A DNA stretch of 64,000 nucleotides from Sedimentisphaerales bacterium (GCA_963663965.2 CAXXFK010000006.1:32001-96000), one strand, 5' to 3'; shown: positions 43,966 through 59,390, counted from the first letter of the stretch. Notes: generated by a model not told the origin, from the letters alone. Translations and numbers: made by a program.

Positions 43966-45006
43966 ATGAACATTACCAATCGAATTCTCATCGTTCTGAT
44001 AATAGCGACATCAAGTCTGTTGCCTTCCTGCGCGAAGCGCCCATCCATCGAACTTACCTGGCAGAATCCCGTCTGGGATGGCTATCTGGCCGATCCCCAT
44101 GTCTGGCAGACTGGCGGAGTCTATTATGCCTGTGGTACCGGCAAGGCGCCCGATGGCAACCAGTTTCCTATTCTCCGTTCAAAAGATCTGGCCCACTGGG
44201 AGTTCGTTGCCGGTGCCTTGCCGCCGCTGACCGATCCCAAACTTACCGAATACTGGGCGCCCGAGGTCGCTGAACGCGATGGCAAATTCTACCTCTACTA
44301 CGCCGGCGATCTTAAAATGCGCGTGGCAGTCGCTGACCATCCTGCCGGACCCTATCAGGATGCCGGTGTTCTGCTCTTTCCCGAGCTCGAGTTCTCTATC
44401 GATGCCCATCCCTTCCACGACCCCGTCACCGGTCAGTGGTATCTGTTTTTTGCCCGCGATTTCTTCGATCAGAAGCCCGGCACCGCGCTGTCCGTTGTCA
44501 GGCTCAATGATGACATGATCTCCACCTCCGGCCCCATGCACACCGTCATTCGCGCCTTCGCCGACTGGCAGATCTACGAACGTAACCGTACCCTCTACAA
44601 TAAACTCTGGCCCGCCTGGTACACCGTCGAAGGCCCGACACTCATCTATCGCAATGGCAAATACTACTGCTTCTATTCCGGTGGCAACTGGCAGACCCCC
44701 GGCTACGGTGTGGGCTGTGGGGTTTCCGATACCATCACCGGCCCCTATACCGATCCCTGGAGCAAAGAGGCTGCCTGTGTCCTGAGCAGCATTCCCGGCA
44801 AACTCATCGGTCCCGGCCACAATGGCACGATTCTCGGCCCGGACGGGCAGACTTATTTCATCGTCTATCACTCCTGGAACCCGCAGCGCACTGCCCGCCA
44901 GATGTGCCTTGATCCTATCATCTGGACCGAAGATGGCCCGCGCGCCTGGCAGCCCTCCCGTGGTGAAAAGACCGTAACGATTCCACTTACTGGCAATATG
45001 AAATAG
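43966..45006 (+). CDS. GH43 glycoside hydrolase (lipoprotein)
   Basis: ADPHV, WAPEV, IDAHPF, VEGP, GPGHN five-bladed propeller motifs. Confidence 0.88.
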   Translation: MNITNRILIVLIIATSSLLPSCAKRPSIELTWQNPVWDGYLADPHVWQTGGVYYACGTGKAPDGNQFPILRSKDLAHWEFVAGALPPLTDPKLTEYWAPEVAERDGKFYLYYAGDLKMRVAVADHPAGPYQDAGVLLFPELEFSIDAHPFHDPVTGQWYLFFARDFFDQKPGTALSVVRLNDDMISTSGPMHTVIRAFADWQIYERNRTLYNKLWPAWYTVEGPTLIYRNGKYYCFYSGGNWQTPGYGVGCGVSDTITGPYTDPWSKEAACVLSSIPGKLIGPGHNGTILGPDGQTYFIVYHSWNPQRTARQMCLDPIIWTEDGPRAWQPSRGEKTVTIPLTGNMK

Positions 45007-45008
45007 CT

Positions 45009-46145
45009 ATGTTAAGTATCTCCTTTCAGGTATTTCCCCGCACCATACTGCTTCTGTGCGTTGTATTGGCAAATACACCCAATCTCTTTGCCGCCGACGT
45101 ATCGCGGAACATTCAGCCGACTTCCGCCGCTCAGTCAACATCCAAAATCTTTACTTATCACAATCCACTTCCTTTCGAGTATGAAGCGGGCGGCCAGACC
45201 CGCCGAGAAATCCGTGATCCCTGTATCATTCGCGAAGGGGATACCTGGTACCTGATCTTTACAGTCTGGCCATTTGCCAATCGGGAAGAAAACCGCCTGC
45301 ATCTTCCCGATCAGGGTGGTTCTCCCGGTATCAAACTCTACGCGTCCAGGGATCTCACCCATTGGACCTTTGTTAACTGGCTGGTCAAAGCGGATGAACT
45401 GCCCGACGATTGCCCCTATAAAAACCGTTTCTGGGCGCCCGAAATTCACAAAATCGGCGGTCGCTTTTATCTGATTTTCACTGCCGACAACTGGCTGAAA
45501 AAACCATATAATCCCGCCGGTTCATGGGGTACGGCCGGCTATGCCTTTGTGAGTGTTGCCAACCAGATCACCGGCCCATACCAACACATCACCTACATAG
45601 AAGGGGGGGGCTGCGATACTTCTTTGTTCGCCGATACCGATGGCCGGACCTATGCCGTCATTCCCGCTTATGACATTTTCCTCCAACCCATAGATCTTAG
45701 TAAAATTGATCAGGGCCAGGTCCGGTTAACTGGCACCCGTCAGAAAATCGTATCCTGTAAAAACGATGATATTCATTTTAATGCCGAAGCGGATTATCTC
45801 GAAGGCCCCTGGCTGTTTCGGCGTGACGGTCGTTATTATCTGATCTATGCCGGTCCCTATCGAGATTCGAAAAATACCACCGAACACCTGGGCTACTGGG
45901 CCAGCGTTGCTTATGCCGATTCACTAGATGGCCCCTGGCACAAAGATCCGCGTGGCCAGGTCTTCTTCGGTGGTCACATGGCTGTCTTCACCGGCCCGGA
46001 TCACCGGCCCTGGTTCTCATACCGCTGGGAAAAAGATAACGCGCACCGCGGCCTGCTCTGTATCGATCCAGTTACCATTGATCCCGCCGGCTTCCTCCAA
46101 CCCCACGGGCCATCCGATACGATAACGAAAATTCTGATCCCCTGA
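45009..46145 (+). CDS. GH43 glycoside hydrolase
   Basis: RDPCI, FWAPEIH, CDTSLF, LEGPW. Confidence 0.85.
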   Translation: MLSISFQVFPRTILLLCVVLANTPNLFAADVSRNIQPTSAAQSTSKIFTYHNPLPFEYEAGGQTRREIRDPCIIREGDTWYLIFTVWPFANREENRLHLPDQGGSPGIKLYASRDLTHWTFVNWLVKADELPDDCPYKNRFWAPEIHKIGGRFYLIFTADNWLKKPYNPAGSWGTAGYAFVSVANQITGPYQHITYIEGGGCDTSLFADTDGRTYAVIPAYDIFLQPIDLSKIDQGQVRLTGTRQKIVSCKNDDIHFNAEADYLEGPWLFRRDGRYYLIYAGPYRDSKNTTEHLGYWASVAYADSLDGPWHKDPRGQVFFGGHMAVFTGPDHRPWFSYRWEKDNAHRGLLCIDPVTIDPAGFLQPHGPSDTITKILIP

Positions 46146-46991: not shown

Positions 46992-48737
46992 TTATGTAGC
47001 AGCCTCTTCTTCGGGCGTATTATTCTGATCAGTTTTCGGCCGTTTAATCAAACTCAGCACTGCGCCCGCGATCAGCAGTAAAAAGCCCAGTATCACATAT
47101 CGCCACTGTGCCATATGTCGCGACAGCATATACAACCGTACTCCCGGCGCGATCATCAGAGTTCCCGCTACGAGCCAGTCTCGATGCCTTATCCAAATCG
47201 CCCATGCAAGCGCCGCCGTTAGTAACACCACAATCAGATAGCTGAAATGCACCTGGTTTGGCAGTAGATCGTACAGGCAAAGCGTTAAACACCACGCCGC
47301 CACGATCCGGAATCCCCGGTGTATTTTCGCGCCAAAGATCAATCCCAGAATCAAAGTCGCCAGCCCGAAAAATCCCGCCAGGCCGCTGACCGGTGCCAGA
47401 TTCAAAGCTGATAAGAGCTTGCCGGAACCTCCCAGGAAACCAAAATCGACACACAACACCCCGATACTAGCCAGACAGAAATAAGGCTGCCATTTAATCA
47501 GCCCCCAACTCATCAATGCCGCCGCCAGGGTCCAGGCCGCCGGATGATAATGTAATGCGTAGGGCGCTTCCGGCCGGAATCCCATTGTCAAAATCACTCC
47601 CAGCCCATAGGCACATGCCACATAGCTCAGATACTTTAACCGGTGACGCCAAGCGATCCAGAGGACTGCCAATCCAGACAGGGCGATAAATACCGGCGGA
47701 TACGCAATCAGATCAACCATGACCTTCCCGGATACTACCACCGATTTCTGATCGATTGCGACTAAAATTGCGGCCAACGGCAGTCCAGCCAGTATGAATT
47801 CGATCATGCCGGCCCGTTTTCCACTTAACCGAAAAACCTCAATCAGTAACAGGCACCCTAGCGTGATAGCGGGGCAATAATCGCCCATCGTCCGTTCCAG
47901 CGTAAAAGTAAAAGACATTGAATACTGGTGAACACACGCCGCCGCCAGCAGTATCAATCCAAAGAGAACCGCCATCGCCGGCGATTGCAGGTACGCCGGC
48001 CGACTTTCGTCCGATTGGGCTCTCGGCGTTGACTGTAACGCGCTCAGCAGCATCAATCCGCCGCCGGCCAGCAATCCATACCACAGCGCCATCCAGATCC
48101 CGCGTCGTTGCATCTCTTTGGCGGCGTTACTTGCCAGCGAATCCGTTAACCAGACCGGCCCCAGGTAATTAATTACCACAATTAAACCCAATCCAGTGAG
48201 CATCGCCGCGTTAAACGGTACCCGTACCCATCGTTTCAGAACCCCCAGCTTAATCAAGCCAAGTGCCACGCCGGCAATTCCGGCCGTCAGCGCGTTCGCC
48301 ATATTCTTCTCCGCGATCGATCCCACCGCGATACTCGTCCCGATCAGATACAACGCGATCAGGACCATCAGCGAAATCGCGTCATCCACTACCTTTTTTC
48401 CCACAATCAAAATCAATACCGCCAGCAGCGCGATCTCATAACCATGCAGTGTTAACAGGCACGGCAGCGCCTCCCGCAGTGTCTGACCGGACGACAGAAT
48501 TGGCCCCAGCATGTTAACGATCCCGTACGTAATAAACACCGCGCTCAGGCAGTAAAACAGGCTACCCCCGGTCAGGTTAAAAAAAGCCTTCCAGGTCAGG
48601 TCCTGATACGGTTTATTTCCTGTGGCTGCCGGGAATATTTCTTCCACTGGTATATTACCTTGGAGGCCATCAATCAATGCTTTCTCAAAGCTGGTATCTT
48701 CCGGCAATTTCTGTTCAGGGGTATCAGGGGTATCCAT
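46992..48737 (-). CDS. Polytopic membrane protein of unknown function
   Basis: 581-aa ORF with many hydrophobic segments, 5 nt downstream of the prepilin-like gene. Confidence 0.7.
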   Translation of the reverse strand: MDTPDTPEQKLPEDTSFEKALIDGLQGNIPVEEIFPAATGNKPYQDLTWKAFFNLTGGSLFYCLSAVFITYGIVNMLGPILSSGQTLREALPCLLTLHGYEIALLAVLILIVGKKVVDDAISLMVLIALYLIGTSIAVGSIAEKNMANALTAGIAGVALGLIKLGVLKRWVRVPFNAAMLTGLGLIVVINYLGPVWLTDSLASNAAKEMQRRGIWMALWYGLLAGGGLMLLSALQSTPRAQSDESRPAYLQSPAMAVLFGLILLAAACVHQYSMSFTFTLERTMGDYCPAITLGCLLLIEVFRLSGKRAGMIEFILAGLPLAAILVAIDQKSVVVSGKVMVDLIAYPPVFIALSGLAVLWIAWRHRLKYLSYVACAYGLGVILTMGFRPEAPYALHYHPAAWTLAAALMSWGLIKWQPYFCLASIGVLCVDFGFLGGSGKLLSALNLAPVSGLAGFFGLATLILGLIFGAKIHRGFRIVAAWCLTLCLYDLLPNQVHFSYLIVVLLTAALAWAIWIRHRDWLVAGTLMIAPGVRLYMLSRHMAQWRYVILGFLLLIAGAVLSLIKRPKTDQNNTPEEEAAT

Positions 48738-48742
48738 GTGTT

Positions 48743-49651
48743 TTACCTCGTTCGATATTGATTTTCATCTATTCCCGGCGGTTCCGTTTCCTTATCCGCC
48801 CACGCCCATTTCAGGTTACCCAGCGGATTATCGCTCCTGCTGTTACCGCGTATCTGATCTTCATATTCGATCCTCTCCACATGCCCATCCAGCATGACCA
48901 CGTTCCCCCAGCCATAATCCAGCTTTTTCGCGTTATTGACTCCATGATAGGTCGCGATACAATCCTGCGGTGTCTCATCGGCGCTGATCTGCAATACCGT
49001 ATCATCCAATCCTGCGCTGCTCAGGGACACCGATCCCTTACTGATAAACGAAGATGACCTCGCCCGGCCCCATATTGGCCATGAGTTTTCCTCACCAAAG
49101 AAAAATACTTCATCCGTCTTTTGTACCTGCGACAGCCGCCTCACACCGCCGGCCTGATCGCTGCCCAGGTACCCGTTCATCGTATAACTGTTTTGCGGCT
49201 TGAGATCGATCGATTTCACATGCTCGGGATTGGAACACCCCCGGCTGGGCGCGTAACGACGGAAGGTCGGGCACGGCCCGTAATAACCCCCGTCAAAATA
49301 GCTCCACAGCGTACCCCGAAAACCCTCGGTCTGCGCCATGACCTCACCATTGGGCGCCATCACTATATCATGCCAGCGGCAACCCATCGGATGCTCCTTG
49401 CTGACCGAAGACTCATGGTACAGCCAGCCCCGTGCCTCCGGAAACATCTGATTTTGATCATCCAGATAGACTGAACCCGCCTGCCCGTACCTGTGCAGAT
49501 AACTCATACACACGACTGCAGTTGACTGGCTTCTCGCTTTATTCAATGACGGCATGAGAAATGCCACCAGCAGCATAATCACCACGATGATGCAGAGCAG
49601 TTCAATGATCGTAAATCCGTTGCCGGCCTGTTTAAAACACCGTTTGTTCAT
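48743..49651 (-). CDS. Prepilin-type N-terminal cleavage / H-X9-DG-like protein
   Basis: GFTIIELLCIIVVIMLLVAFLMPSLNKAR, CP, SYTMN, GNVVMLDGH. Confidence 0.85.
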   Translation of the reverse strand: MNKRCFKQAGNGFTIIELLCIIVVIMLLVAFLMPSLNKARSQSTAVVCMSYLHRYGQAGSVYLDDQNQMFPEARGWLYHESSVSKEHPMGCRWHDIVMAPNGEVMAQTEGFRGTLWSYFDGGYYGPCPTFRRYAPSRGCSNPEHVKSIDLKPQNSYTMNGYLGSDQAGGVRRLSQVQKTDEVFFFGEENSWPIWGRARSSSFISKGSVSLSSAGLDDTVLQISADETPQDCIATYHGVNNAKKLDYGWGNVVMLDGHVERIEYEDQIRGNSRSDNPLGNLKWAWADKETEPPGIDENQYRTR

Positions 49652-49913: not shown

Positions 49914-50756
49914 CTACCAATGAATTGTTCGGGATACGATTCGATTGATAGGCAGCTCAGAGAAGTTGGAGGGTAATATTTCCCATTCATAATAAATGGC
50001 GTTGTCCCTTCTGAATACCTTAACAGGAATGTTGGGATTATGCCATGTTATCTTCTCATGACTGCAATTCGAAAGAGAACAATCGGACGATTGATTGAAG
50101 TCCTCTGGATATCCCGGGCATCGGCGGGTGACGGCAATTGGAACTTCGGGAACATGCAAGGTAAAGGACCAGTCAACCATATGATTGATGGATATTCCCT
50201 GTCCCGTATTGCTTAACTCGCAACGGGATATCTTTCGTTCAGCGAGATGTTGCACAAGCTCGGATTTGTCGATACTGAGGGATTGATAATGTTGCCGAAG
50301 TTCATCGGTGGGGGGGCGATACTTTAACAGACAGGTCTCGCCATCAAAATTTGTTAAAATTCGTTGAGTCGCATGCTGATACATGCTGTTGTCGAACCGC
50401 ATGATGCGCGGATCAGTTTGCTGGCCGGCCAGCCATCGACCGAGGACAACCTCGCAAACATCCAGGCGGCTCAATACATCCAGAAGTCCCCAATCGTTAC
50501 AGACGACTTCAAATTTTTGTTGTATCTCCCCAAGCGTTTTCACTAATCCACTGACCCTATCCAATCCTGAATTGGTTAACGGTGGCGTGACCAGAGTAAT
50601 CTCAATGCCATTTTTTACCAGGTATTTCCCGAGTTCAAGCGCCACCTCACAGGATGGCAGGAGGCGTTCACAGGTTTCGTGGCCGAAATAGACCCGGTGA
50701 GAATTAAAATCGCAATTCTCGGCCTGCCACCAATCTATCCAGATTGCTTTTTCCAT
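49914..50756 (-). CDS. U32-family (UbiV-like) partner protein
   Basis: RVYFGHETCERLLP, LVTPP, VVCNDWGLL, LGR, TRRC and C-terminal Cys; adjacent to a U32 gene. Start could extend to TTG 50798. Confidence 0.6.
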   Translation of the reverse strand: MEKAIWIDWWQAENCDFNSHRVYFGHETCERLLPSCEVALELGKYLVKNGIEITLVTPPLTNSGLDRVSGLVKTLGEIQQKFEVVCNDWGLLDVLSRLDVCEVVLGRWLAGQQTDPRIMRFDNSMYQHATQRILTNFDGETCLLKYRPPTDELRQHYQSLSIDKSELVQHLAERKISRCELSNTGQGISINHMVDWSFTLHVPEVPIAVTRRCPGYPEDFNQSSDCSLSNCSHEKITWHNPNIPVKVFRRDNAIYYEWEILPSNFSELPINRIVSRTIHW

Positions 50757-50782
50757 GTCCAACTCAAAATAATCTTTTCGCC

Positions 50783-51781
50783 TTATTGGTAATAACAATT
50801 CGACTGCTCACAAGCCGCTCCGAAAGTGTCCAAATATAACCTCTTTAATTTTTCCGACACAGTATCATCAGTCTTTATCGTGTTCCATAAACGAATGGAT
50901 TCTTTCAGGAAATTTGCCGACCTGCATATTATTTCCGAGTCATAACCCCGGCCGGCGATTTTGAAAAGACTGACACCGGCGTTCCATAATTCCCTTAATC
51001 GACAAGCGCCACAATGCGGTTTATAAAAATCGTCTCGGGTTAGATTAGAGACCCTGCCGTTCGCTGTCTCCCATTCCAGCTGGCAGCCATGACCTTCATA
51101 ACCGGGATCCGGCGAGTATACGGTTTTAATCGGGCCTTCTGTAATGACTTTATCGATGAATACGGGGGCGTCAACCGGTAACCGTACGCCATGGTAGAAA
51201 TTGCATAATCCATCGATGAACTGGCACTTCTGATTCATGACCAGCATTTCATATTCGATATCAGGCCCTCGATTAATGATACTTTCAATTTCCTTTAAAC
51301 TCAGGTGCCTTGGCAACACGACTCTGCTGACACCAAAATTGGCAAAATAGTTTATGGCGGCGCTGTTAAAGGGGGCGGCCACAATAGACAAATGATAATG
51401 AATCTTCCGGCAGTAATTTTGTAATGTGATTAACAACCCGGCATCAGCAATAATCATTGCCCCGCCTCCCGCGTCTTCCCACTGCTGAGCCAATTCAATA
51501 ATAGCGTTGACCTGCTGAGAGGAGTAATGACTGTTCAGAGTCAGGATGGTGTTAATTCCTCTGGTTTTGCCGATCTGGGCAATGCGGCTAAGGTCTTCTG
51601 AATTTCGAATGTGCGAAGATCTTCCCTGACGCCGACTGATAGTATCCGAATCTCCGTATTTGTCGCACCAGGCATCAGGCATGACGCCAAAATAGACTTC
51701 ATTCGCGCCGGCGTCAATGACCCGCAGGGCTTCCGTTTCCGAACAGATAGGGGCGACTATTCTGGGATTTATCGAAGCGAT
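50783..51781 (-). CDS. U32-family ('peptidase' U32, UbiU/RlhA/TrhP-like) Fe-S protein
   Basis: IVAP..AGANEVYFG (in frame upstream of the ORF-track start), IIADAGL, HLS, RVVLPRHLSL, CQFIDGLC..GC..CGAC, FKIAGR. Confidence 0.8.
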   Translation of the reverse strand: MASINPRIVAPICSETEALRVIDAGANEVYFGVMPDAWCDKYGDSDTISRRQGRSSHIRNSEDLSRIAQIGKTRGINTILTLNSHYSSQQVNAIIELAQQWEDAGGGAMIIADAGLLITLQNYCRKIHYHLSIVAAPFNSAAINYFANFGVSRVVLPRHLSLKEIESIINRGPDIEYEMLVMNQKCQFIDGLCNFYHGVRLPVDAPVFIDKVITEGPIKTVYSPDPGYEGHGCQLEWETANGRVSNLTRDDFYKPHCGACRLRELWNAGVSLFKIAGRGYDSEIICRSANFLKESIRLWNTIKTDDTVSEKLKRLYLDTFGAACEQSNCYYQ

Positions 51782-53376
51782 GTCAGTTCTCCAGATTCCA
51801 TCTTGATCGCCGCAACCAGCTCTTCCAGCGAGTGAAAAAAACCTCCCGAGACCAGCATTCGGGCCCCCTGGATGGCTTTGTGGTAGTTGTCGTTGCGAAT
51901 GGGGTTGATTGCGGCATGACTGGCGTTGCCCGATTCGTGCATCGAAAGAACTTCAAAAAAACTTCTGGCTACTTCATGGTCAAGATAACTTAATATGTCT
52001 TTAAGTTTCAGAAGGGAAGGGGCAAATCGATCGTCAAAACGGCGCTTGGCGAGCAAAGGCGGTAAAGCACAAACCGCCTGCATGGAGGGGGCGGCCAGGG
52101 GATTAATGGCATCCAGCAAATCACGGTGGAAGGAATCAATTTCTGAGTGAATATAAGGGATAGGCTGAGGTCCCGGATTCGAGGAATGATACTGACCTGA
52201 ATTGACTCCATCGATATAATACTGCGATCCAGGCATGGCGTCCATGCGGTTTCTGGCGGAACGATATTCCAGAAGATGAAATTCTTTGAGTTTCAGGGCA
52301 AAGCGCTTGATTCCTTCCAAAGTGGCGTGAGAATGAAACATCATGACCCCGACATGAATTTCAGCCCCTTTTTTCCTGATCTCATTAACCAATGGCCATG
52401 GATTCTGGGTATAGGGCCGGTGCCATCTGCGGAGATCCGCCGGATCGTCAGATTCCAATCCCATAAAGACATAGGTGAGACCCGCCCGGGCTAACAGGTG
52501 AATAATCTCCTCATTCAAAGAATCCGGACGGACCTGAATCCCAAAGGAGATCTGTAACTGTCTTTGACATATCTCATCGGAGAATTCCCTGGCCCGAATG
52601 GTTGAATGATGATTGTTACCCAGAAAATCTTCATCAATAAAATTAAAAGACCGTGCTCCCATGTTCCGATTCAGGTTTTCGATTTCGTCCACAATATTTT
52701 TAATGGATCGTCCACGCCAGCGATTGGATGAATTCAGGGACATACCCGGGGAAGAGCAAAACATACAGGCCCCGCAACAACCCCGTGAACCCTGAAGATT
52801 GAAAGCCCAGCCGCTCCCCAGTATCTGTTCTGCGTAGGGCCGCTTGGGAAAAGGCAGCGTATCAAGATCATGGACTGCATGACCGCGGTATATTCTGGAT
52901 GGGTCAGGCTTGACTCCCGGATTTTTTGGTCCGGTCCAGTCATTCAAAAGTGATTGAACCAACGTTTCACCCTCAAATTGTGCCAGTAAGAAATCGGACG
53001 GCAGCATCTTGTCGGCGGCATCCAGTTCCGTCGAAATAAAATTTCCACCGGCCAGCCAGAGCACGCTTTTATCGCCCGAAAGCTTTTTTATTTCAGCGTA
53101 AATCGTCAGGACCGACTGGATTTCCTGGGCGGTTGTAATGGAAAAACCGATGACATCGGGTTCAAACGAGGCGGCTCGACGGGCTAAACGCGCATCAGTT
53201 AATCGATCCAGCGAACTGTCGAGTATGAGTACAAGACCGCCGGACGATTCTATCAGGGAGGCCAGGTACTCTATTCCAAGCGGTTCTTGAATTTCCGGAT
53301 CATAATAGGGAGAACAATTTTGCGGGCGTATCAGAACCCATCTCATTTTAGGAATTGGATCGCACATACATCTCAT
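51769..53376 (-). CDS. Cobalamin-binding radical SAM enzyme
   Basis: EPLGIEYLAS, PDVIGFS, GG, EGE, DLDTLPFP, SRGCCGACMFC (CxxxCxxC), FIDEDF, GLES; start may be ATG 53346. Confidence 0.88.
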   Translation of the reverse strand: MRCMCDPIPKMRWVLIRPQNCSPYYDPEIQEPLGIEYLASLIESSGGLVLILDSSLDRLTDARLARRAASFEPDVIGFSITTAQEIQSVLTIYAEIKKLSGDKSVLWLAGGNFISTELDAADKMLPSDFLLAQFEGETLVQSLLNDWTGPKNPGVKPDPSRIYRGHAVHDLDTLPFPKRPYAEQILGSGWAFNLQGSRGCCGACMFCSSPGMSLNSSNRWRGRSIKNIVDEIENLNRNMGARSFNFIDEDFLGNNHHSTIRAREFSDEICQRQLQISFGIQVRPDSLNEEIIHLLARAGLTYVFMGLESDDPADLRRWHRPYTQNPWPLVNEIRKKGAEIHVGVMMFHSHATLEGIKRFALKLKEFHLLEYRSARNRMDAMPGSQYYIDGVNSGQYHSSNPGPQPIPYIHSEIDSFHRDLLDAINPLAAPSMQAVCALPPLLAKRRFDDRFAPSLLKLKDILSYLDHEVARSFFEVLSMHESGNASHAAINPIRNDNYHKAIQGARMLVSGGFFHSLEELVAAIKMESGELTSLR

Positions 53377-53406
53377 CTAAACAATCATTGGAACATCTAA
53401 TGTTAT

Positions 53407-54525
53407 TCAGCGTTTAGCGTTCGCGCTGTAGAAGATGCTTATGAATAACGTTGTTGAGGCGAATATAATCCATCCTGAACCGGCAGGAATGCCCCAGCTG
53501 ATCAAATATAATATCGAATAGCACAGGCCACAGGCGATAAAAGTCCAGACCTTGGATCTTCTAATAAATAATATACAGAGAAACAGGCTGATAATCCCAA
53601 ATATAATGATAAATACCACACGATTCCCTGTGGTGTCTCTACCTCCCCAGTGCCCGATGAGGCCGGTTTGTAAAATATCCGGAAGAACAGTGGACGCTTG
53701 CATCAGTTGTTTGTATTTAATGGGAACATCCTTGTCAACCCATGGGATCAACAGGTTCCGGGCCTCGCGGAAATCACCCGCTCCATGTTTGTACCAGGCC
53801 AGGTTAAAAGCGGCCGATGGCATGGTGAGGCATTTTTCATAAGCTTCCCGGGCGATAAGTTCTGCCTGGCCGCTCTGGTGAAGTCTTTCGTAAACCACCG
53901 TTAAATTGATTAAGGATGGGATATAACCTGGGTTTTGTTTTCTCAGGCATTCAAGGTTTAGCTGGGCCGTAAGATCTTCGTTTCGATGCAATTCGGACAA
54001 GGCCAGATTGTTCCTTGCGTCAAAGTGATAGGGCTTCGCCTGTAACGCGAGAGTATACTTTTCAATGGCCCCGTCAAAATCGCCATTGCGGTATAATGTA
54101 TTGCCCTCTTCATAAAACGTGGCGCCCTCATTACTTTCCACGCCGGGGTCTTGATACTCCTCAACCATTGAAATCCATTCCTTTACGGCATCCTGGACTT
54201 GTTCGCATTTTCGATATGGATTTAACTTGTACAGTTCCTTTCGGACGCCAATGGACTCGAAGGTAAATCCTTTGACGACCATTTGATTGATCGTCGTGAT
54301 CGAATCGCCCGCAATGTCATCGTATTCTTTGAGCGGGCCTGTCAGATACATTTTGTCGGCGCTGACAAAATCGTGGGGATCCGCTCCAAACTGATAGTTT
54401 CCAAATTGAGATTCCTCTGTGTTGTCGGCGTAACAGGATGATCCGCCGCCAATGAGAATAACGCCCCCGGACAGAATCAAGAGCAGAGATAACGCAATTT
54501 GCTTCGCAGCTTTAAAATAATTCAT
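53407..54525 (-). CDS. Exported TPR-repeat protein with three C-terminal TM helices
   Basis: N-terminal hydrophobic signal, YEEGNTLYRNGDFDGAIEKY, NNLAL, NLTVVY, FNLAW TPR motifs. Confidence 0.75.
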   Translation of the reverse strand: MNYFKAAKQIALSLLLILSGGVILIGGGSSCYADNTEESQFGNYQFGADPHDFVSADKMYLTGPLKEYDDIAGDSITTINQMVVKGFTFESIGVRKELYKLNPYRKCEQVQDAVKEWISMVEEYQDPGVESNEGATFYEEGNTLYRNGDFDGAIEKYTLALQAKPYHFDARNNLALSELHRNEDLTAQLNLECLRKQNPGYIPSLINLTVVYERLHQSGQAELIAREAYEKCLTMPSAAFNLAWYKHGAGDFREARNLLIPWVDKDVPIKYKQLMQASTVLPDILQTGLIGHWGGRDTTGNRVVFIIIFGIISLFLCILFIRRSKVWTFIACGLCYSILYLISWGIPAGSGWIIFASTTLFISIFYSANAKR

Positions 54526-54556
54526 GACAATCCCTTTTTGCAAATACTTGATACTG

Positions 54557-54889
54557 TTACTTTAATGCACCGGCGCGCAGCGACACCCATAACCCCCCTC
54601 CTCCGCTCCGGTGACTGTTGCAGGAACAACTCACATGACCCACACAACTGCAGGCCGGAACGCAGGTACATACCTTATTGCATGAGCAGTAGACAGCGCC
54701 TACGGGATGACAGGAACACCCGGTTTCAGTGCGTTCTTCGTTGATGAGACCGGAGGTGTCCGAAAAGAACGTGTCTAGACTTGGACGTGGAAATTCCTTG
54801 CCATTGATAATCATGGTTATTTGGGGGATGGAATTGTCATCCTCGTTGCTGTCAGTTAAGTTGGGACGATCATTGGGCCTGTCGCTCAT
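54557..54889 (-). CDS. Cys-rich putative RiPP precursor peptide (CxC repeats)
   Basis: Acidic leader then GCSCHPV, YCSCNKV, CTCVPA, CSCVGH, SCSCNSH; overlaps the rSAM/SPASM gene end; AGGA RBS. Confidence 0.8.
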   Translation of the reverse strand: MSDRPNDRPNLTDSNEDDNSIPQITMIINGKEFPRPSLDTFFSDTSGLINEERTETGCSCHPVGAVYCSCNKVCTCVPACSCVGHVSCSCNSHRSGGGGLWVSLRAGALK

Positions 54890-56267
54890 GGGTTTCATTC
54901 CTGTCTTTTGGGCATTCAGCCGATTCGGATAAACGGATTTTAACTAAATGTTCAAGTTGCAACCGGGTTAACGCTCTGTTCAGGTCGCAGCGGATAGTGC
55001 CACAGTGCGGACTGTCATTATCTCGATTTTTAAACACTTTCGCAAGGCAATCCCCGGCGCAATGCCATTTACAGAAGCAATCGGCACAGTAGGGGTGGTT
55101 CTCGACCGACAATCTTCGCAGCGCTTCAATTCGGTTATGGTCAAAGCAAAACATCGATTTCGCTTGATCGTATCGCCCGTAATGAAAAATCCCGGCTCGA
55201 GGATCGGCACAGTCCATTACTTCATAACAGGAAGTGACAATGCCTTCGGGAAGGATCGTGAAGCCATCTCCTGAGGCGGCGCAAAATTTACTTGTGATGA
55301 CATCGAGTCTTGCGCCGCTGTAATTCACATCGACCCCCAGTTCCCGTCCGCGTTCATAAGCTTTCATGAAATGCTCAATAAAAATATCGTCCGGGGGGGG
55401 CGACTCGCCGCTGATGGCGCATCGGCCGCAAAGGAAAACGGGCTCCATCTGCAAATAGGCAAACTGAAATTGATCGCGCAGCTTTTCGACGATTTCCACC
55501 ATTCGCGTAACGGTTGACCGGGTAATCGTCGTTCGAATGCCATAGAAAAAGCCGGCCTCGTCAAAATATTTCAGGGTCTCGGCTATTTCAGCGTAAGAAC
55601 CGTTGCCGTCCGTTTTGGGGCGATTATAGTCATGGATGTCCTGGGGGCCGTCCAGGGAGATGTTGACCGTGGAAAAATGCCGGGCGATAAATTCCCGTTG
55701 CTCTTTGGAAAGTAAACCATTGGTAGCCGCGAACAGGTTCACATCAAGCCCTTTTTGGGCGGCAACCTCACAGGCATATGTTACGGATTGTTGAATAAAA
55801 TCCCAGGCCTGGGTGGGTTCGCCCCCTCCATGATAGCCTACGGAAAAATTTTTGCTTCCCAGCCGGGCCGCATTTCTTGCGACAAAGTCGATGGCGGCTT
55901 TTCCGATCTCAAAAGGCATTTCTAAAAATCGGGTTCCGGCGTTCGCGTAACAATATCGGCAGCGAAGGTTGCACCGCGAGGTGGGAAATAGAGTGACCTC
56001 ATGTGGACTGAATTCACCTTGTTCCGGAAATCGGGGACTGTGCAGGGTGGGGGGATCGATGATTCCCTCTTGTCTGAGCTGGTCGATGATGGCGGAAGCC
56101 TCCGGGGACAATTCTGATCCATTGTTATTTAAATACGCCGACACAATTCTCGCCGCGGCGCGATTAATTACGGCAACACTCCGCAGAAGGGGGGCGTATA
56201 AATAATAGTCATCTCCAGAACGGGGAATTAAAAACAAATCATTGTTTTCTCTTGGGGACATAATCAT
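54870..56267 (-). CDS. Radical SAM/SPASM peptide maturase
   Basis: CNLRCRYC, HGGGEP, TNG, ISLDG; SPASM FCAA..SCYE..CADCFCKWHCAGDC..C. Confidence 0.92.
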   Translation of the reverse strand: MIMSPRENNDLFLIPRSGDDYYLYAPLLRSVAVINRAAARIVSAYLNNNGSELSPEASAIIDQLRQEGIIDPPTLHSPRFPEQGEFSPHEVTLFPTSRCNLRCRYCYANAGTRFLEMPFEIGKAAIDFVARNAARLGSKNFSVGYHGGGEPTQAWDFIQQSVTYACEVAAQKGLDVNLFAATNGLLSKEQREFIARHFSTVNISLDGPQDIHDYNRPKTDGNGSYAEIAETLKYFDEAGFFYGIRTTITRSTVTRMVEIVEKLRDQFQFAYLQMEPVFLCGRCAISGESPPPDDIFIEHFMKAYERGRELGVDVNYSGARLDVITSKFCAASGDGFTILPEGIVTSCYEVMDCADPRAGIFHYGRYDQAKSMFCFDHNRIEALRRLSVENHPYCADCFCKWHCAGDCLAKVFKNRDNDSPHCGTIRCDLNRALTRLQLEHLVKIRLSESAECPKDRNETHERQAQ

Positions 56268-56785
56268 TAACTGTAGCTTTCTGTATAATTATCGACAATA
56301 CAGGCATAAAAGGGCTCTGCCAGAAATCCCATCGCACCGAGTTGAGATATGAAATAGGCGATTTGTGCACAAAACCGAGAGTGCAATGTCAATCCATGCG
56401 AACGGGCTGTTAATCTGGCGATATCCTCCACCGTGTGTCGGCCATCTAACAGTTGAATGACTTCCGCCCCCAGTTTATTGACGACACACAACGAGGAGTC
56501 GGCATCATTTTCTTGCTTGACAACCAGATCAGATTTATCGTTAGAAACATGCACATCTGTCTTGAGTTGCGGATAGCAGGGTTTTTCTAAAGCAGGGTTT
56601 CCGGAATGCATCTCATCTGAAGGGGGCCTGGTAAATGCAAAATATCCGACTATTGATCCCACCGATCCAACACCCAGGGTAATGATAAAATTTCGCCGGG
56701 TATAATCTTTAGAAACGGGATGACTATCTACTTTTTTAAAAGCATGCAATTGGTTGAGTTCTGAATGGTCATCATGTTCAGACAT
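56267..56785 (-). CDS. PqqD/RRE-domain protein with twin-arginine/TM N-terminus
   Basis: TRRNFIITLG..FAF; VNKLGAEVIQLLDGRHTVEDIA..FISQLGAMGFL winged-helix RRE pattern; AAGGAG RBS. Confidence 0.78.
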   Translation of the reverse strand: MSEHDDHSELNQLHAFKKVDSHPVSKDYTRRNFIITLGVGSVGSIVGYFAFTRPPSDEMHSGNPALEKPCYPQLKTDVHVSNDKSDLVVKQENDADSSLCVVNKLGAEVIQLLDGRHTVEDIARLTARSHGLTLHSRFCAQIAYFISQLGAMGFLAEPFYACIVDNYTESYS

Positions 56786-57056
56786 TGACAGCTCCTTCGA
56801 AACTATTTTTTTATCGATAGTTATATAATAAATCCAATCAAAGACCATTTTTTATAATATATCAAACAGACAGCTGTTTGTCCAAAAGAAAATATTGGGT
56901 TATTTTAATCTCTGTTTGGTCTGGCTCTCACTTTCTATCTGCTACGCGTAACCGATGAAAATTATCCATGTGTTTTCCCTTGCATATCCCCTTTCAGCAA
57001 GTATAGTTAATGCCTTGCAAACCATTTAAACCATATGCCTCAAAGGAGTTAATGCC

Positions 57057-59390
57057 ATGAAATCCAGTTACTTACAGTTACGCCCCATGCTTGAATCCGT
57101 TCTCATAATCGCGCTGGCCCTCACCACCATCTCCTGTCAGCAGTTCCAGTCTGCTTCCTCAACCGGCCCAAATACCCCCGGCCTGTCCCAGTATATTCGC
57201 CCGATCATCGGCACCAAAGGCGAAGGCAACGTCTATCCCGGCCCCTCGGCCCCATTCGGCATGATTCAGCTCAGTCCCGATACTGACAAAGTCCTCTGGG
57301 CCACCGCCTCCGGCTACGAATACTCTGATCCCACTATACTGGGCTTCAGCCTGACCCACCTTTCCGGTACCGGTATCCCTGACCTGGGTGATTTTCTCTT
57401 CATGCCCCAGGTCGGCACGCCCGAACTCGTCAGCGGTACTAAAGACCAGCCCGACCAGGGCTATCAATCCCCTTATTCCCACGATGACGAAGTTGCCTCA
57501 GCCGGCTACTACAAAGTCAAACTCCAGAAATCCGGCGTCACCACCGAACTGGCCGCTACCGTCCACGCCGGTATTCTGCGTTTCACCTTCCCGGCCAGCG
57601 ATGAAGCCTCCATCATGACCGATCTGGCCCACGTCCTCAGCGGCGGCCGCTGGAAAGCCGCCCAGTCCCATGTCCGCATTGAAGACGACGCCACTGTGAC
57701 CGGTTACCACCTGATCAACGGCTGGGCCAAAGAACGCCATCTTTATTATGCCGCGCGCTACTCCCGTCCCTTCGACGAAGGTGTCATCTACAGCAACGGC
57801 AAGCGCGTCTTCTATGACAGCCACGCCAATTACCGCTTCCGCAGTTGCAAGGAAGCCGCCGGCACCAACCTGCAGTTCCTGGCCAAATACAAAACCAGAG
57901 CCGGCGAGGTCATTCAGGTCAAAGTGGCCGTCTCCACCGTCAGCGCCGCCAACGCCCTGGAAAACCTCGACGCCGAAATCCCCGGCTGGAACTTTGAAAA
58001 AGTCGTCGCCGACACCTGTAAGCTCTGGGACAAAGAACTCGCCTGCATGACTATCGAAGGCACCCAGACCGAAAAAGAGACCTTCTATACCGCGCTCTAT
58101 CACGCCTTCCTCATGCCTAACACCCATCAGGATGTCAACGGCCAGTATCGCGGATTCGACCAGAACATCCATACTGCCGATGGCTTTACCAAGTATACCA
58201 TCTTCTCCCTCTGGGACACCTACCGCGCCACCCATCCACTCTTTGCCCTGGTCCAGGCCAGACGTGATTCCGATATGATCAACTCCATGCTCGCCCACTA
58301 TGACCAGAGCGTGGACCACCTCCTGCCCGTCTGGGAGCTGCAAGGCAACGAAACCTGGTGCATGATCGGTTACCACTCCGTTCCCGTGATTGCCGACGGC
58401 TATCTCAAGGGCGTCAAAGGCTTCGATCCCGAACGCGCCTACCAGGCCATCAAGACTACCGCCATGAACCCCCATTACGATTCCGTGGCTGAATACGCCC
58501 GACTCGGCTGGGTTCCCTTCGATCACGAAAACGAATCGGTCTCCAAGACCCTCGAATATGCCTATGATGATTACACTATCGCGCAGATGGCCAAAGCCCT
58601 CGGCAAAACCGAAGATTACACCTACTTTATGAAACGCGCCGGCCATTATAAAAACATCTGGGACAACGAAACCGGTTTTATGCGCGGCCGCGATTCCCAG
58701 GGCAACTGGCGCACACCCTTCGATCCCCAGGGCTTCGTCCAGGGCGGCGATATCACCGAAGGCACCAGCTGGCAGTACAGCTGGTACGTCCCGCACGATG
58801 TCCCCGGCCTGATCCGGCTGATGGGCGGCAAAGAGGCCTTCCTCAAAAAGCTTGACACCTTGTTCCAGCTCGCCGCATCCGAAAACAGCGATTCTGGTGT
58901 CGATGATATCTACGGCCGCATTGGCGAATATTGGCACGGCAACGAACCCAGCCACCACATTATCTACCTCTATTGCTACGCCGGCCAACCCTGGAAAGCC
59001 CAGCAGTTGCTCCATACCGTCGTCAAGACCCAATACGGCAACCAGCCCCAATCGCTCACCGGCAACGATGACTGCGGCCAGATGTCCGCCTGGTACATGT
59101 TTACCTGCATGGGCTTCTATCCCGTCGCCCCGGCCAGCGACTATTACGTTATCGGCGCGCCCCAGATGAAGAAAATCGCCATGCGGCTCTCCAACGGAAA
59201 AACCTTCACCATGACCGCCGAAAACCTCTCCGAATCCAACCTCTACGTCCAGTCCGTCAAACTCAACGGCAAAGACTGGGCCAGCCCGTTCCTGCCCTAC
59301 GCCGAACTCAAAAACGGCGGCACCCTCGAATTCACCATGGGCCCAACCCCCAACAAATCCTGGGGCGCCAATCCTGTCATCCCACAATAA
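57057..59390 (+). CDS. GH92 alpha-mannosidase (lipoprotein)
   Basis: PFGMIQLSPDT, HLSGTG, FSLWDTYR, SKTLEYAYDD, TEG, HGNEPSHH, GNDDCGQMSAWY. Confidence 0.94.
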   Translation: MKSSYLQLRPMLESVLIIALALTTISCQQFQSASSTGPNTPGLSQYIRPIIGTKGEGNVYPGPSAPFGMIQLSPDTDKVLWATASGYEYSDPTILGFSLTHLSGTGIPDLGDFLFMPQVGTPELVSGTKDQPDQGYQSPYSHDDEVASAGYYKVKLQKSGVTTELAATVHAGILRFTFPASDEASIMTDLAHVLSGGRWKAAQSHVRIEDDATVTGYHLINGWAKERHLYYAARYSRPFDEGVIYSNGKRVFYDSHANYRFRSCKEAAGTNLQFLAKYKTRAGEVIQVKVAVSTVSAANALENLDAEIPGWNFEKVVADTCKLWDKELACMTIEGTQTEKETFYTALYHAFLMPNTHQDVNGQYRGFDQNIHTADGFTKYTIFSLWDTYRATHPLFALVQARRDSDMINSMLAHYDQSVDHLLPVWELQGNETWCMIGYHSVPVIADGYLKGVKGFDPERAYQAIKTTAMNPHYDSVAEYARLGWVPFDHENESVSKTLEYAYDDYTIAQMAKALGKTEDYTYFMKRAGHYKNIWDNETGFMRGRDSQGNWRTPFDPQGFVQGGDITEGTSWQYSWYVPHDVPGLIRLMGGKEAFLKKLDTLFQLAASENSDSGVDDIYGRIGEYWHGNEPSHHIIYLYCYAGQPWKAQQLLHTVVKTQYGNQPQSLTGNDDCGQMSAWYMFTCMGFYPVAPASDYYVIGAPQMKKIAMRLSNGKTFTMTAENLSESNLYVQSVKLNGKDWASPFLPYAELKNGGTLEFTMGPTPNKSWGANPVIPQ

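Follow-up and report, generated by a model that had tools for sequence, protein, structure and literature searches.

A CxC-repeat peptide cassette in a Sedimentisphaerales bacterium with a twin-arginine RRE protein and a His tail that predicts B12-radical SAM and U32 genes

The minus strand of a 64,000-nucleotide stretch of DNA from a Sedimentisphaerales bacterium (GCA_963663965.2 CAXXFK010000006.1:32001-96000; "the window" refers to this whole stretch) carries, from 49914 to 56785 (or to 56848, where the first reading frame opens), seven open reading frames (ORFs) which abut, overlap or are separated by short junctions. As the original prediction had stated, and as ORF analysis and hidden Markov model (HMM) scans confirmed, these genes encode, in order, a protein with a recognition element (RRE) for peptides that are made on ribosomes and modified after translation (RiPPs), a radical S-adenosylmethionine (rSAM)/SPASM enzyme, a CxC-repeat peptide, a tetratricopeptide repeat (TPR) protein, a cobalamin-dependent rSAM enzyme (B12-rSAM) and two U32-family proteins, U32a and U32b. 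Our verdict is that the cassette probably specifies a thioether-type peptide maturation with several undescribed parts. The prediction missed a C-terminal Pro-Val-His (PVH) tail on the peptide which predicts the presence of the B12-rSAM and U32 genes, a twin-arginine translocation (Tat) signal on the RRE protein and a frameshift in the window's copy of the peptide gene. The best explanation of the whole, to which we give an even chance of being correct, is that it makes a small protein which is modified, cross-linked through Cys and exported, and which then remains with a partner in the cell envelope.

The cassette recurs outside the window. At least 120 homologs of the SPASM protein were found, at 48–61% identity, and a profile built from 46 of them was used to fetch 160 loci (the best 80 of 197 and the best 80 of 219 confirmed matches). 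A CxC peptide was called adjoining the SPASM gene in 101 of these, and removal of seven near-duplicates and three truncated or mis-called peptides left 91 loci, still with a few close pairs (e.g. L017/L020). The complete seven-gene set was present in 30 of the 91, from 11 phyla according to record labels, and 28 of the 30 keep the window's order; many of the other 61 loci are interrupted by contig ends. The enzymes therefore do co-occur with a homologous CxC peptide, as the prediction required, and, because the set recurs in this way, the cassette is not a chance assembly. Comparison of the fetched neighbourhoods revealed no additional gene family co-travelling with it. HMM scans returned, by gene order, a weak PqqD match, rSAM/SPASM, nothing for the peptide, TPR, B12-binding plus rSAM, PF01136 and nothing for the last gene. 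No cassette protein reached any NCBIfam family cut-off, the best scores being 129 bits against 340 for PapB and 118 against 425 for the SCIFF maturase (both with the SPASM), and 71.5 against 440 for UbiU (with U32a); the impression that this enzyme combination was an unrecognised one has thus been borne out. RefSeq labels the orthologs in a cultured carrier, Desulfobacter curvatus DSM 3379 (L014), as "radical SAM protein", "hypothetical protein", "B12-binding domain-containing radical SAM protein" and "U32 family peptidase". In this intact homolog the precursor is WP_020587922, the SPASM protein WP_020587923, the B12-rSAM WP_020587920 and U32a WP_020587919.

The precursor gene (54557..54898, minus strand; likely start at 54889) encodes a Cys-rich peptide of 110–113 aa with a leader, hexad repeats and a frameshifted tail. 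Homologs have in common a leader with the consensus KPNDRP...P-x-I...RPGLET-x-F, hexad repeats of the type C-[S/T]-C-[V/N/D]-[P/G/K/S]-[V/H] and a terminus C-x-C-[A/V]-P-V-H directly followed by the stop codon. In 49 peptides ending in PVH, 590 of the 614 core Cys residues lie within CxC pairs, of which each peptide has 3–9, and neither a conserved acidic (Asp/Glu) acceptor nor a conserved Asp four residues after Cys was found. NCBIfam families gave no match for 36 precursors, and an ESM Atlas search with the precursor gave no usable match.

In a tree of 78 SPASM proteins (a quick IQ-TREE run with SH-aLRT support only, duplicates and short rows being left out), the PVH rows fall in one 43-row clade (SH-aLRT 97) together with three non-PVH members. 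Among loci with at least 6.5 kb of downstream sequence, orthologs of the B12-rSAM, U32a and U32b were present in 26 of 26 with a PVH tail and in none of 20 with other tails, three of which have distant B12-rSAMs below the ortholog threshold. The same holds at genome level, where the B12-rSAM ortholog was found in 32/32 genomes of the clade versus 0/29 others, and U32b in 30/32 versus 1/29, the single case being a distant U32 pair that stands alone next to moeA-like genes. As for divergent tails, a lineage ending in PVY (L109 and L177) has the TPR and B12-rSAM genes followed by unrelated genes, with no U32b in the genome; a locus ending in PVRI (L129) has neither B12-rSAM nor U32 in 9.6 kb; and one ending in PVRVR (L077) lacks both at the locus and has no B12-rSAM ortholog in the genome. 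This nested pattern suggests that the U32 proteins need the terminal His and the B12-rSAM an aromatic terminus.

Several points weigh against so direct a link. The association amounts to one clade with three internal changes in incomplete assemblies and so does not count as a test in the statistical sense; cassette members also served to build the ortholog profiles. One PVH locus (L112) shows no B12-rSAM or U32 gene in 4 kb downstream, being either an exception or a split cluster, and other aromatic targets exist in most cores, since internal Tyr is found in 46/49 and internal His in 40/49. It could also be that the U32 proteins and the B12-rSAM act elsewhere, on a lipid, a quinone, RNA or the TPR partner, and merely co-travel with the peptide genes, as known U32 substrates are non-peptide, stand-alone members of this U32 subfamily exist and the top NCBIfam matches of the B12-rSAM are lipid and tetrapyrrole enzymes, all far below cut-off. 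We find this distinctly improbable in view of the overlapping genes and fixed order in 11 phyla, the nested loss with the tail and the fact that cassette U32a and U32b each form a clade of their own (FastTree).

The maturase (54870..56267, minus strand, 465 aa) has as its closest solved structure 5WGG (E 1.6e-36), which we take to be CteB, with matching positions of the auxiliary-cluster Cys residues. Thirteen Cys are invariant in 46/46 homologs, three of them (C280, C283 and C399) being extra with respect to CteB. The alignment to CteB starts at the end of the CteB N-terminal region and the SPASM protein also aligns weakly with the RRE profile (E 0.02); it probably has an N-terminal RRE of its own, which would leave the stand-alone RRE free for another job. 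CteB joins Cys32 to Thr34, an i to i+2 link with the spacing of a CxC unit (PMC8326336). Thioether cross-linking by the SPASM enzyme is, from these similarities, likely, and, because no Asp or Glu acceptor is conserved, the candidate links are i to i+2 (Cys to Cys carbon) or Cys to Ser/Thr.

In these respects the cassette resembles the ranthipeptides (CteB/SCIFF and PapB/freyrasin), with a SPASM protein that is related to CteB, PapB and QhpD and has the SPASM Cys set, and a Cys-rich precursor next to the maturase. It differs from them in scoring far below the PapB and SCIFF cut-offs, so that with no precursor family match it falls outside both equivalogs, in its three extra invariant Cys, in lacking a CX3D motif or any other acidic acceptor, and in having a Tat-signal RRE, a B12-rSAM, a U32 pair and a TPR partner. 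The abundance of CxC pairs, as in metal-storage proteins, the missing acceptor residue and the Tat signal would equally suit a periplasmic peptide binding Cu, Zn, Fe-S or Hg, in which most CxC thiols are free ligands, the enzymes merely stiffen or cap the chain and Tat is used since the peptide folds with its metal in the cytoplasm. Partly compatible with a cross-linked, exported protein, such a peptide is nevertheless unlikely as a full account: the SPASM enzyme is nearest to thioether-forming enzymes and has a CteB-type Cys set, no metal transporter or regulator is conserved nearby, and the link of U32 and B12-rSAM to the His tail would be left unexplained.

The B12-rSAM (51769..53346, minus strand; ORF open to 53376) contains PF02310 and PF04055, that is, a B12-binding domain and a CxxxCxxC core (C200/C204/C207, in 30/30 homologs), as expected of a B12-dependent rSAM enzyme. 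Its structural model (pLDDT 92.8) is nearest in fold to OxsB, followed by TsrM, CysS, MgmA and TokK, at 12–17% identity and TMq 0.52–0.69, and OxsB, TsrM, CysS and TokK also have the same domain layout. OxsB is not known to be a methylase, and that it should be the best match, rather than a methylase, speaks against methylation of the tail, which, with all matches at such low identity, we therefore treat as a default and not as a finding. Modification of the tail in some form by this enzyme appears rather more probable than its absence. The prediction that the core may be methylated and possibly hydroxylated has accordingly shifted: methylation is unproven, and hydroxylation is better backed than "possibly" implies, for the reason given below for the qhp operons.

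The OxsB match, a terminal dipeptide that is Val-His, or Val-Tyr in one lineage, and a B12-rSAM whose presence follows an aromatic terminal residue would also be in keeping with excision of the tail to give a small cofactor, much as mycofactocin derives from the Val-Tyr at the C-terminus of its precursor. The B12-rSAM would then alter Val-His by a radical reaction other than methylation (decarboxylation or ring formation), the U32 proteins would oxidise the ring and a host peptidase would release the product. The mycofactocin system (MftA/B/C/E) does share with the cassette an RRE, a SPASM protein and a precursor ending in Val and an aromatic residue. It differs in its MftE-type peptidase, as no peptidase is conserved in the cassette, and in its SPASM protein, as MftC is not among the top 25 NCBIfam matches of ours; moreover, a Tat-signal RRE and CxC repeats of up to nine units fit an intact exported protein better, and we consider an excised cofactor to be rather improbable.

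The last two genes encode U32a (50783..51772, minus strand, ~329 aa) and U32b (49914..50756, minus strand, 280 aa; ORF open to 50798). U32a matches PF01136 (E 1e-27) and, by hhalign, E. coli UbiU (99.3%), and has seven Cys residues invariant in 22/22 homologs. No Pfam or NCBIfam family matched U32b, which hhalign relates to U32a (94.6%), weakly to UbiV (E 0.005) and not to UbiU. Its Cys pattern, C29...C213-x12-C226-x4-C231, is present in 72–80 of 83 homologs and is to be compared with the CXnCX12CX3C of UbiV (PMC6747719). The U32b model is a TIM barrel (pLDDT 94.9) that has the U32 structure 5D88 among its top matches, with Z 12.7 and rmsd 3.9 over 197 aligned residues, the longest alignment, and with a Z score within 1 of those for CutC and other barrels; Foldseek gave E 0.018 and prob 0.99. 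PDB sequence searches with U32a, U32b and the B12-rSAM gave no meaningful match, and a search for related loci with U32b alone found nothing. The two genes are fused in some loci (L023 and several Coriobacteriia). The UbiU/UbiV-like assignment therefore holds, since, as in UbiU/UbiV (which, like TrhP and RlhA, are O2-independent hydroxylases), adjacent U32 proteins each have a Cys set able to bind a 4Fe-4S cluster, that of U32b being of the UbiV type (far-upstream Cys and CX12CX4C). The cassette proteins differ from these in belonging to a separate subfamily, in the number and spacing of the U32a Cys residues, in the low UbiU score, in the lack of UbiT and in their proposed peptide substrate.

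Evidence for a hydroxylating role comes from operons for quinohemoprotein amine dehydrogenase (QHNDH; qhp). The U32b profile matched 41/401 Desulfobacterota genomes, many of the matches lying inside qhp operons; qhpC was found in 16 of the 401, and U32b in 14 of these 16 versus 27 of the 385 others. Among 25 genomes with qhpC, 15 have U32b without a QhpG match, nine have QhpG without U32b, none has both and one, with short contigs, has neither, counts which come from a single-protein QhpG query and include related genomes that are not independent. The QhpG matches are those of 8/8 Pseudomonadota and of one further genome (G205). The qhp-linked U32a proteins share the seven-Cys set (12–14 of 14) and group with cassette U32a, apart from UbiU and from the host's two housekeeping U32 proteins, though as a separate clade (FastTree). 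QhpG uses O2 to dihydroxylate a Trp of the already cross-linked QhpC (PMC7876137). Related U32 pairs thus appear to stand in for the O2-dependent QhpG in the qhp operons of anaerobes. By analogy it is plausible that the subfamily carries out O2-independent hydroxylation of aromatic residues in cross-linked peptides, though its role would not be confined to this, because stand-alone members adjoin lipoate, MoeA or DAHP genes. Operons with a U32b/U32a pair and no QhpG match are those of L179, L195, L197–L200, L211–L215, L219 and L222 (Desulfobacterota and one other metagenome-assembled genome), several of which also hold genes for an NrfH-like cytochrome and an aldehyde ferredoxin oxidoreductase.

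For UbiU/V the oxygen donor is prephenate (PMC10990095), and the host encodes chorismate mutase. Weighing against a peptide substrate, U32 enzymes are so far known to act on quinone rings and RNA bases, with direct activity not shown in vitro, according to the same source, in which most U32 subfamilies are described as uncharacterised; in addition, the cassette and qhp U32 proteins form separate clades and others stand alone by lipoate, MoeA and DAHP genes. On balance, hydroxylation of the terminal His by the U32 pair seems to us as probable as its opposite. QHNDH maturation (QhpD/QhpC/QhpG/QhpE/QhpF) is alike in that an rSAM enzyme cross-links a small protein, an aromatic residue is hydroxylated and the product is exported. 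The cassette differs from it in having a B12-rSAM and a His instead of a Trp target, and in lacking the alpha and beta subunits, a QhpC match, QhpE, QhpF, a protease and an ABC exporter; as qhpC was not found in the host genome either, it is not a QHNDH system. The name of the U32 "peptidases", the collagenase activity reported for some of them (PMC5727448) and the absence of any other protease from the cassette might instead suggest that U32a and U32b are the missing leader protease. This we regard as most unlikely, given their Fe-S-type Cys motifs, the retention of the protease QhpE in qhp operons with U32 pairs, and sister clades which follow the same leader logic without U32.

Other settings of the subfamily were seen. 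Stand-alone U32b/U32a pairs occur in Desulfobacterota (L184, L186, L188–L190, L192 and L223), adjoining lipoate ligase and rSAM genes in L188 and L192; L185, L187 and L191 show a second U32b that stands by itself, in L185 and L191 close to DAHP synthase; and in L210, L216 and L217 subfamily genes (fused in L217) adjoin those for secreted beta-helix (NosD-like) or carboxypeptidase-regulatory-domain proteins.

The original prediction saw no exporter and proposed that the product may be retained, overlooking features of the RRE and TPR proteins. The RRE protein (56267..56785, minus strand; 172 aa from an ATG with GGAG upstream) matches PqqD weakly (E 0.004), and the C-terminal part of its family profile matches PqqD 5SXY (E 1e-4). 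Its N-terminal part is a Tat signal/anchor: RRxF followed by a hydrophobic helix is present in 41/43 aligned homologs (the motif tested being S/T-R-R-x-F-L) and a twin-arginine signal in 58/64 RRE matches overall, sister clades included. Profile positions 1–47 match Rieske subunits, a 5-kDa photosystem II protein and an amine oxidase (E 0.08–0.9), all presumably Tat substrates, and in L168 the RRE gene has two tatC genes immediately upstream. The TPR protein (53407..54525, minus strand; ORF open to 54543) carries one hydrophobic segment at its N-terminus and two detected ones, resembling membrane helices, at its C-terminus; Y151, N213 and N247 are conserved in 42/42. In the PVH clade the protein encoded after the peptide contains TPRs and is apparently secreted or membrane-bound, and in sister clades this position is taken by large beta-propeller/TPR proteins with secretion tails. 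Because of the conserved Tat signal of the RRE and the N-terminal hydrophobic segment of the TPR protein, an extracytoplasmic product is more likely than a retained one.

Judged from these signals, Tat is a likely export route, and co-export of the product with the RRE seems somewhat more probable than not. The TPR protein is a probable extracytoplasmic partner, with the chances that it binds the product evenly balanced. Against a Tat route, TatC was not found in the host assembly, which is 94.6% complete, by HMM or by tblastn with the TatC of relatives, and an enrichment of TatC in carriers was rejected (42/46 carriers vs 37/41 relatives). TatA is present in the host and TatC in 22/22 of its high-quality relatives, and the missing TatC would be either an assembly gap or a recent loss.

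Taken together, we propose that the leader is bound by the CteB-like SPASM enzyme, which would install thioether links at the CxC units, that the terminal P-V-(H/Y) is the target of the B12-rSAM, C-methylation being the simplest reaction, and that U32a and U32b, as an Fe-S heterodimer, hydroxylate the ring of the terminal His without O2, probably with prephenate as oxygen donor, as for UbiU/V. The stand-alone RRE would hold the leader and, by means of its twin-arginine signal/anchor, bring the product, already folded, through the membrane by Tat; on the far side the TPR protein would bind it. Export of this kind does not need leader cleavage, which fits the absence of a protease and an ABC exporter. 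The weakest step of the proposal is the physiological role, for which a small, tethered subunit that bears a cofactor or metal, comparable to QhpC, would fit best, and not a diffusible antibiotic. It is a tentative suggestion that the cassette represents a new class of protein-derived cofactor or modified subunit, in which a cross-linked CxC scaffold with a C-terminal His, hydroxylated by U32 without O2 and modified by the B12-rSAM, is delivered to the cell envelope by a Tat-signal RRE as its carrier.

The literature searched, including the supplements of PMC10288494, PMC9062424 and PMC7470986, and with subscription journals and bioRxiv supplements outside its scope, described neither a RiPP cluster containing U32 proteins nor an RRE with a Tat signal, and mentioned neither the accessions nor the tail motifs of the cassette. 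A candidate U32 report (bioRxiv 10.1101/2025.11.18.688581) was discarded, as its "U32" is selenocysteine U325. If true, the proposal would mean that such a modification can derive from His, that U32 enzymes can act on a peptide and that an RRE can serve export instead of the recruitment of enzymes. It points to Tat-signal RRE export of modified peptides and to an unnamed family in 11 phyla. The cassette also offers a small, gene-encoded, soluble candidate U32 substrate whose predicted target is the last His; the PVY and Arg tails are natural negative controls, and O2-independent hydroxylation can be tested by mass shifts.

The window's own copy of the cassette may be inactive. Its precursor departs from the family at five of 12 conserved columns, all in the tail, because of a one-base frameshift at a C6 homopolymer (54593..54598, plus strand). 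The other reading frame gives the family tail, ending in CRCAPVH and a stop at 54562–54564. In one sequencing run, from another sample (X3), a contig with a different downstream flank has one base fewer at 54593, over 48 aligned nucleotides; contigs from the main sample (X1) break inside the C6 run and none spans it, and X2, which comes from that sample too, agrees with the window over the ATA junction described next. The frameshift may reflect an error of assembly, variation between strains or a true null allele. U32a likely starts at an ATA codon at 51772, which overlaps the B12-rSAM stop, because no ATG, GTG or TTG precedes the conserved first strand (the first ATG is at 51682), and its homologs start mostly with ATG or GTG. 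General decay of the copy was rejected, as the enzymes retain conserved columns like their homologs, and any inactivation would therefore be recent.

Within the host lineage the cassette is patchy. The SPASM ortholog was not found in 40 relatives of the host, where the best match (E 1e-22) is an unrelated locus, and U32b occurs in 3/301 genomes of the host's class, the host counted. The SPASM protein nearest to the window's in the tree is verrucomicrobial, and carriers are mostly anaerobic bacteria of many groups; we infer horizontal spread. GC content was rejected as a sign of transfer (47.8% vs 48.6% for the genome). A double-rSAM locus in one relative (G002; L011:6526-8421) was rejected as a cassette homolog, its precursor being unrelated; it combines two rSAM/SPASM genes with a precursor whose N-terminus is twin-arginine-like and is followed by RFAxETDESC repeats.

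Sister clades (L037, L039, L044, L053, L057, L063 and L121) have an RRE, a SPASM protein and a CxC peptide with the tail YW[Y/H]P[N/C] or similar, the peptide gene being followed by genes for large, secreted proteins of the beta-propeller/TPR type and for additional rSAMs, with U32 absent; the RREs of L039, L063 and L121 have a twin-arginine start. More distant SPASM relatives (L054, L133, L143, L149 and L162, some archaeal) are accompanied by tandem Cys-rich precursors with a common "FRLED...ERTF" leader. CxC repeats were also seen as C-terminal tails on longer proteins with signal-like N-termini (L156:9401-10138, L160:4091-4612 and L040:3206-3622), with a twin-arginine in L156 and L160 and WD40-like repeats in L156, which suggests that, on proteins destined for export, the repeat can act as a tag for modification.

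Upstream of the first gene lies a sigma-70-like promoter candidate (56856..56884, minus strand; 10/12 matches, extended -10), which is a mere candidate because 18 such sites were found versus 12.8 ± 3.8 in shuffles. A GH92 alpha-mannosidase gene (57057–59390) is divergent from the cassette. Downstream, on the same strand, are genes for a prepilin-type N-terminal/H-X9-DG-like protein (48743–49651) and a multi-pass membrane protein (46992–48737), rejected as cassette members as homologs were found in 0/160 loci, and further downstream (43966–46145) lie two glycoside-hydrolase-like genes, GH43-like by eye.

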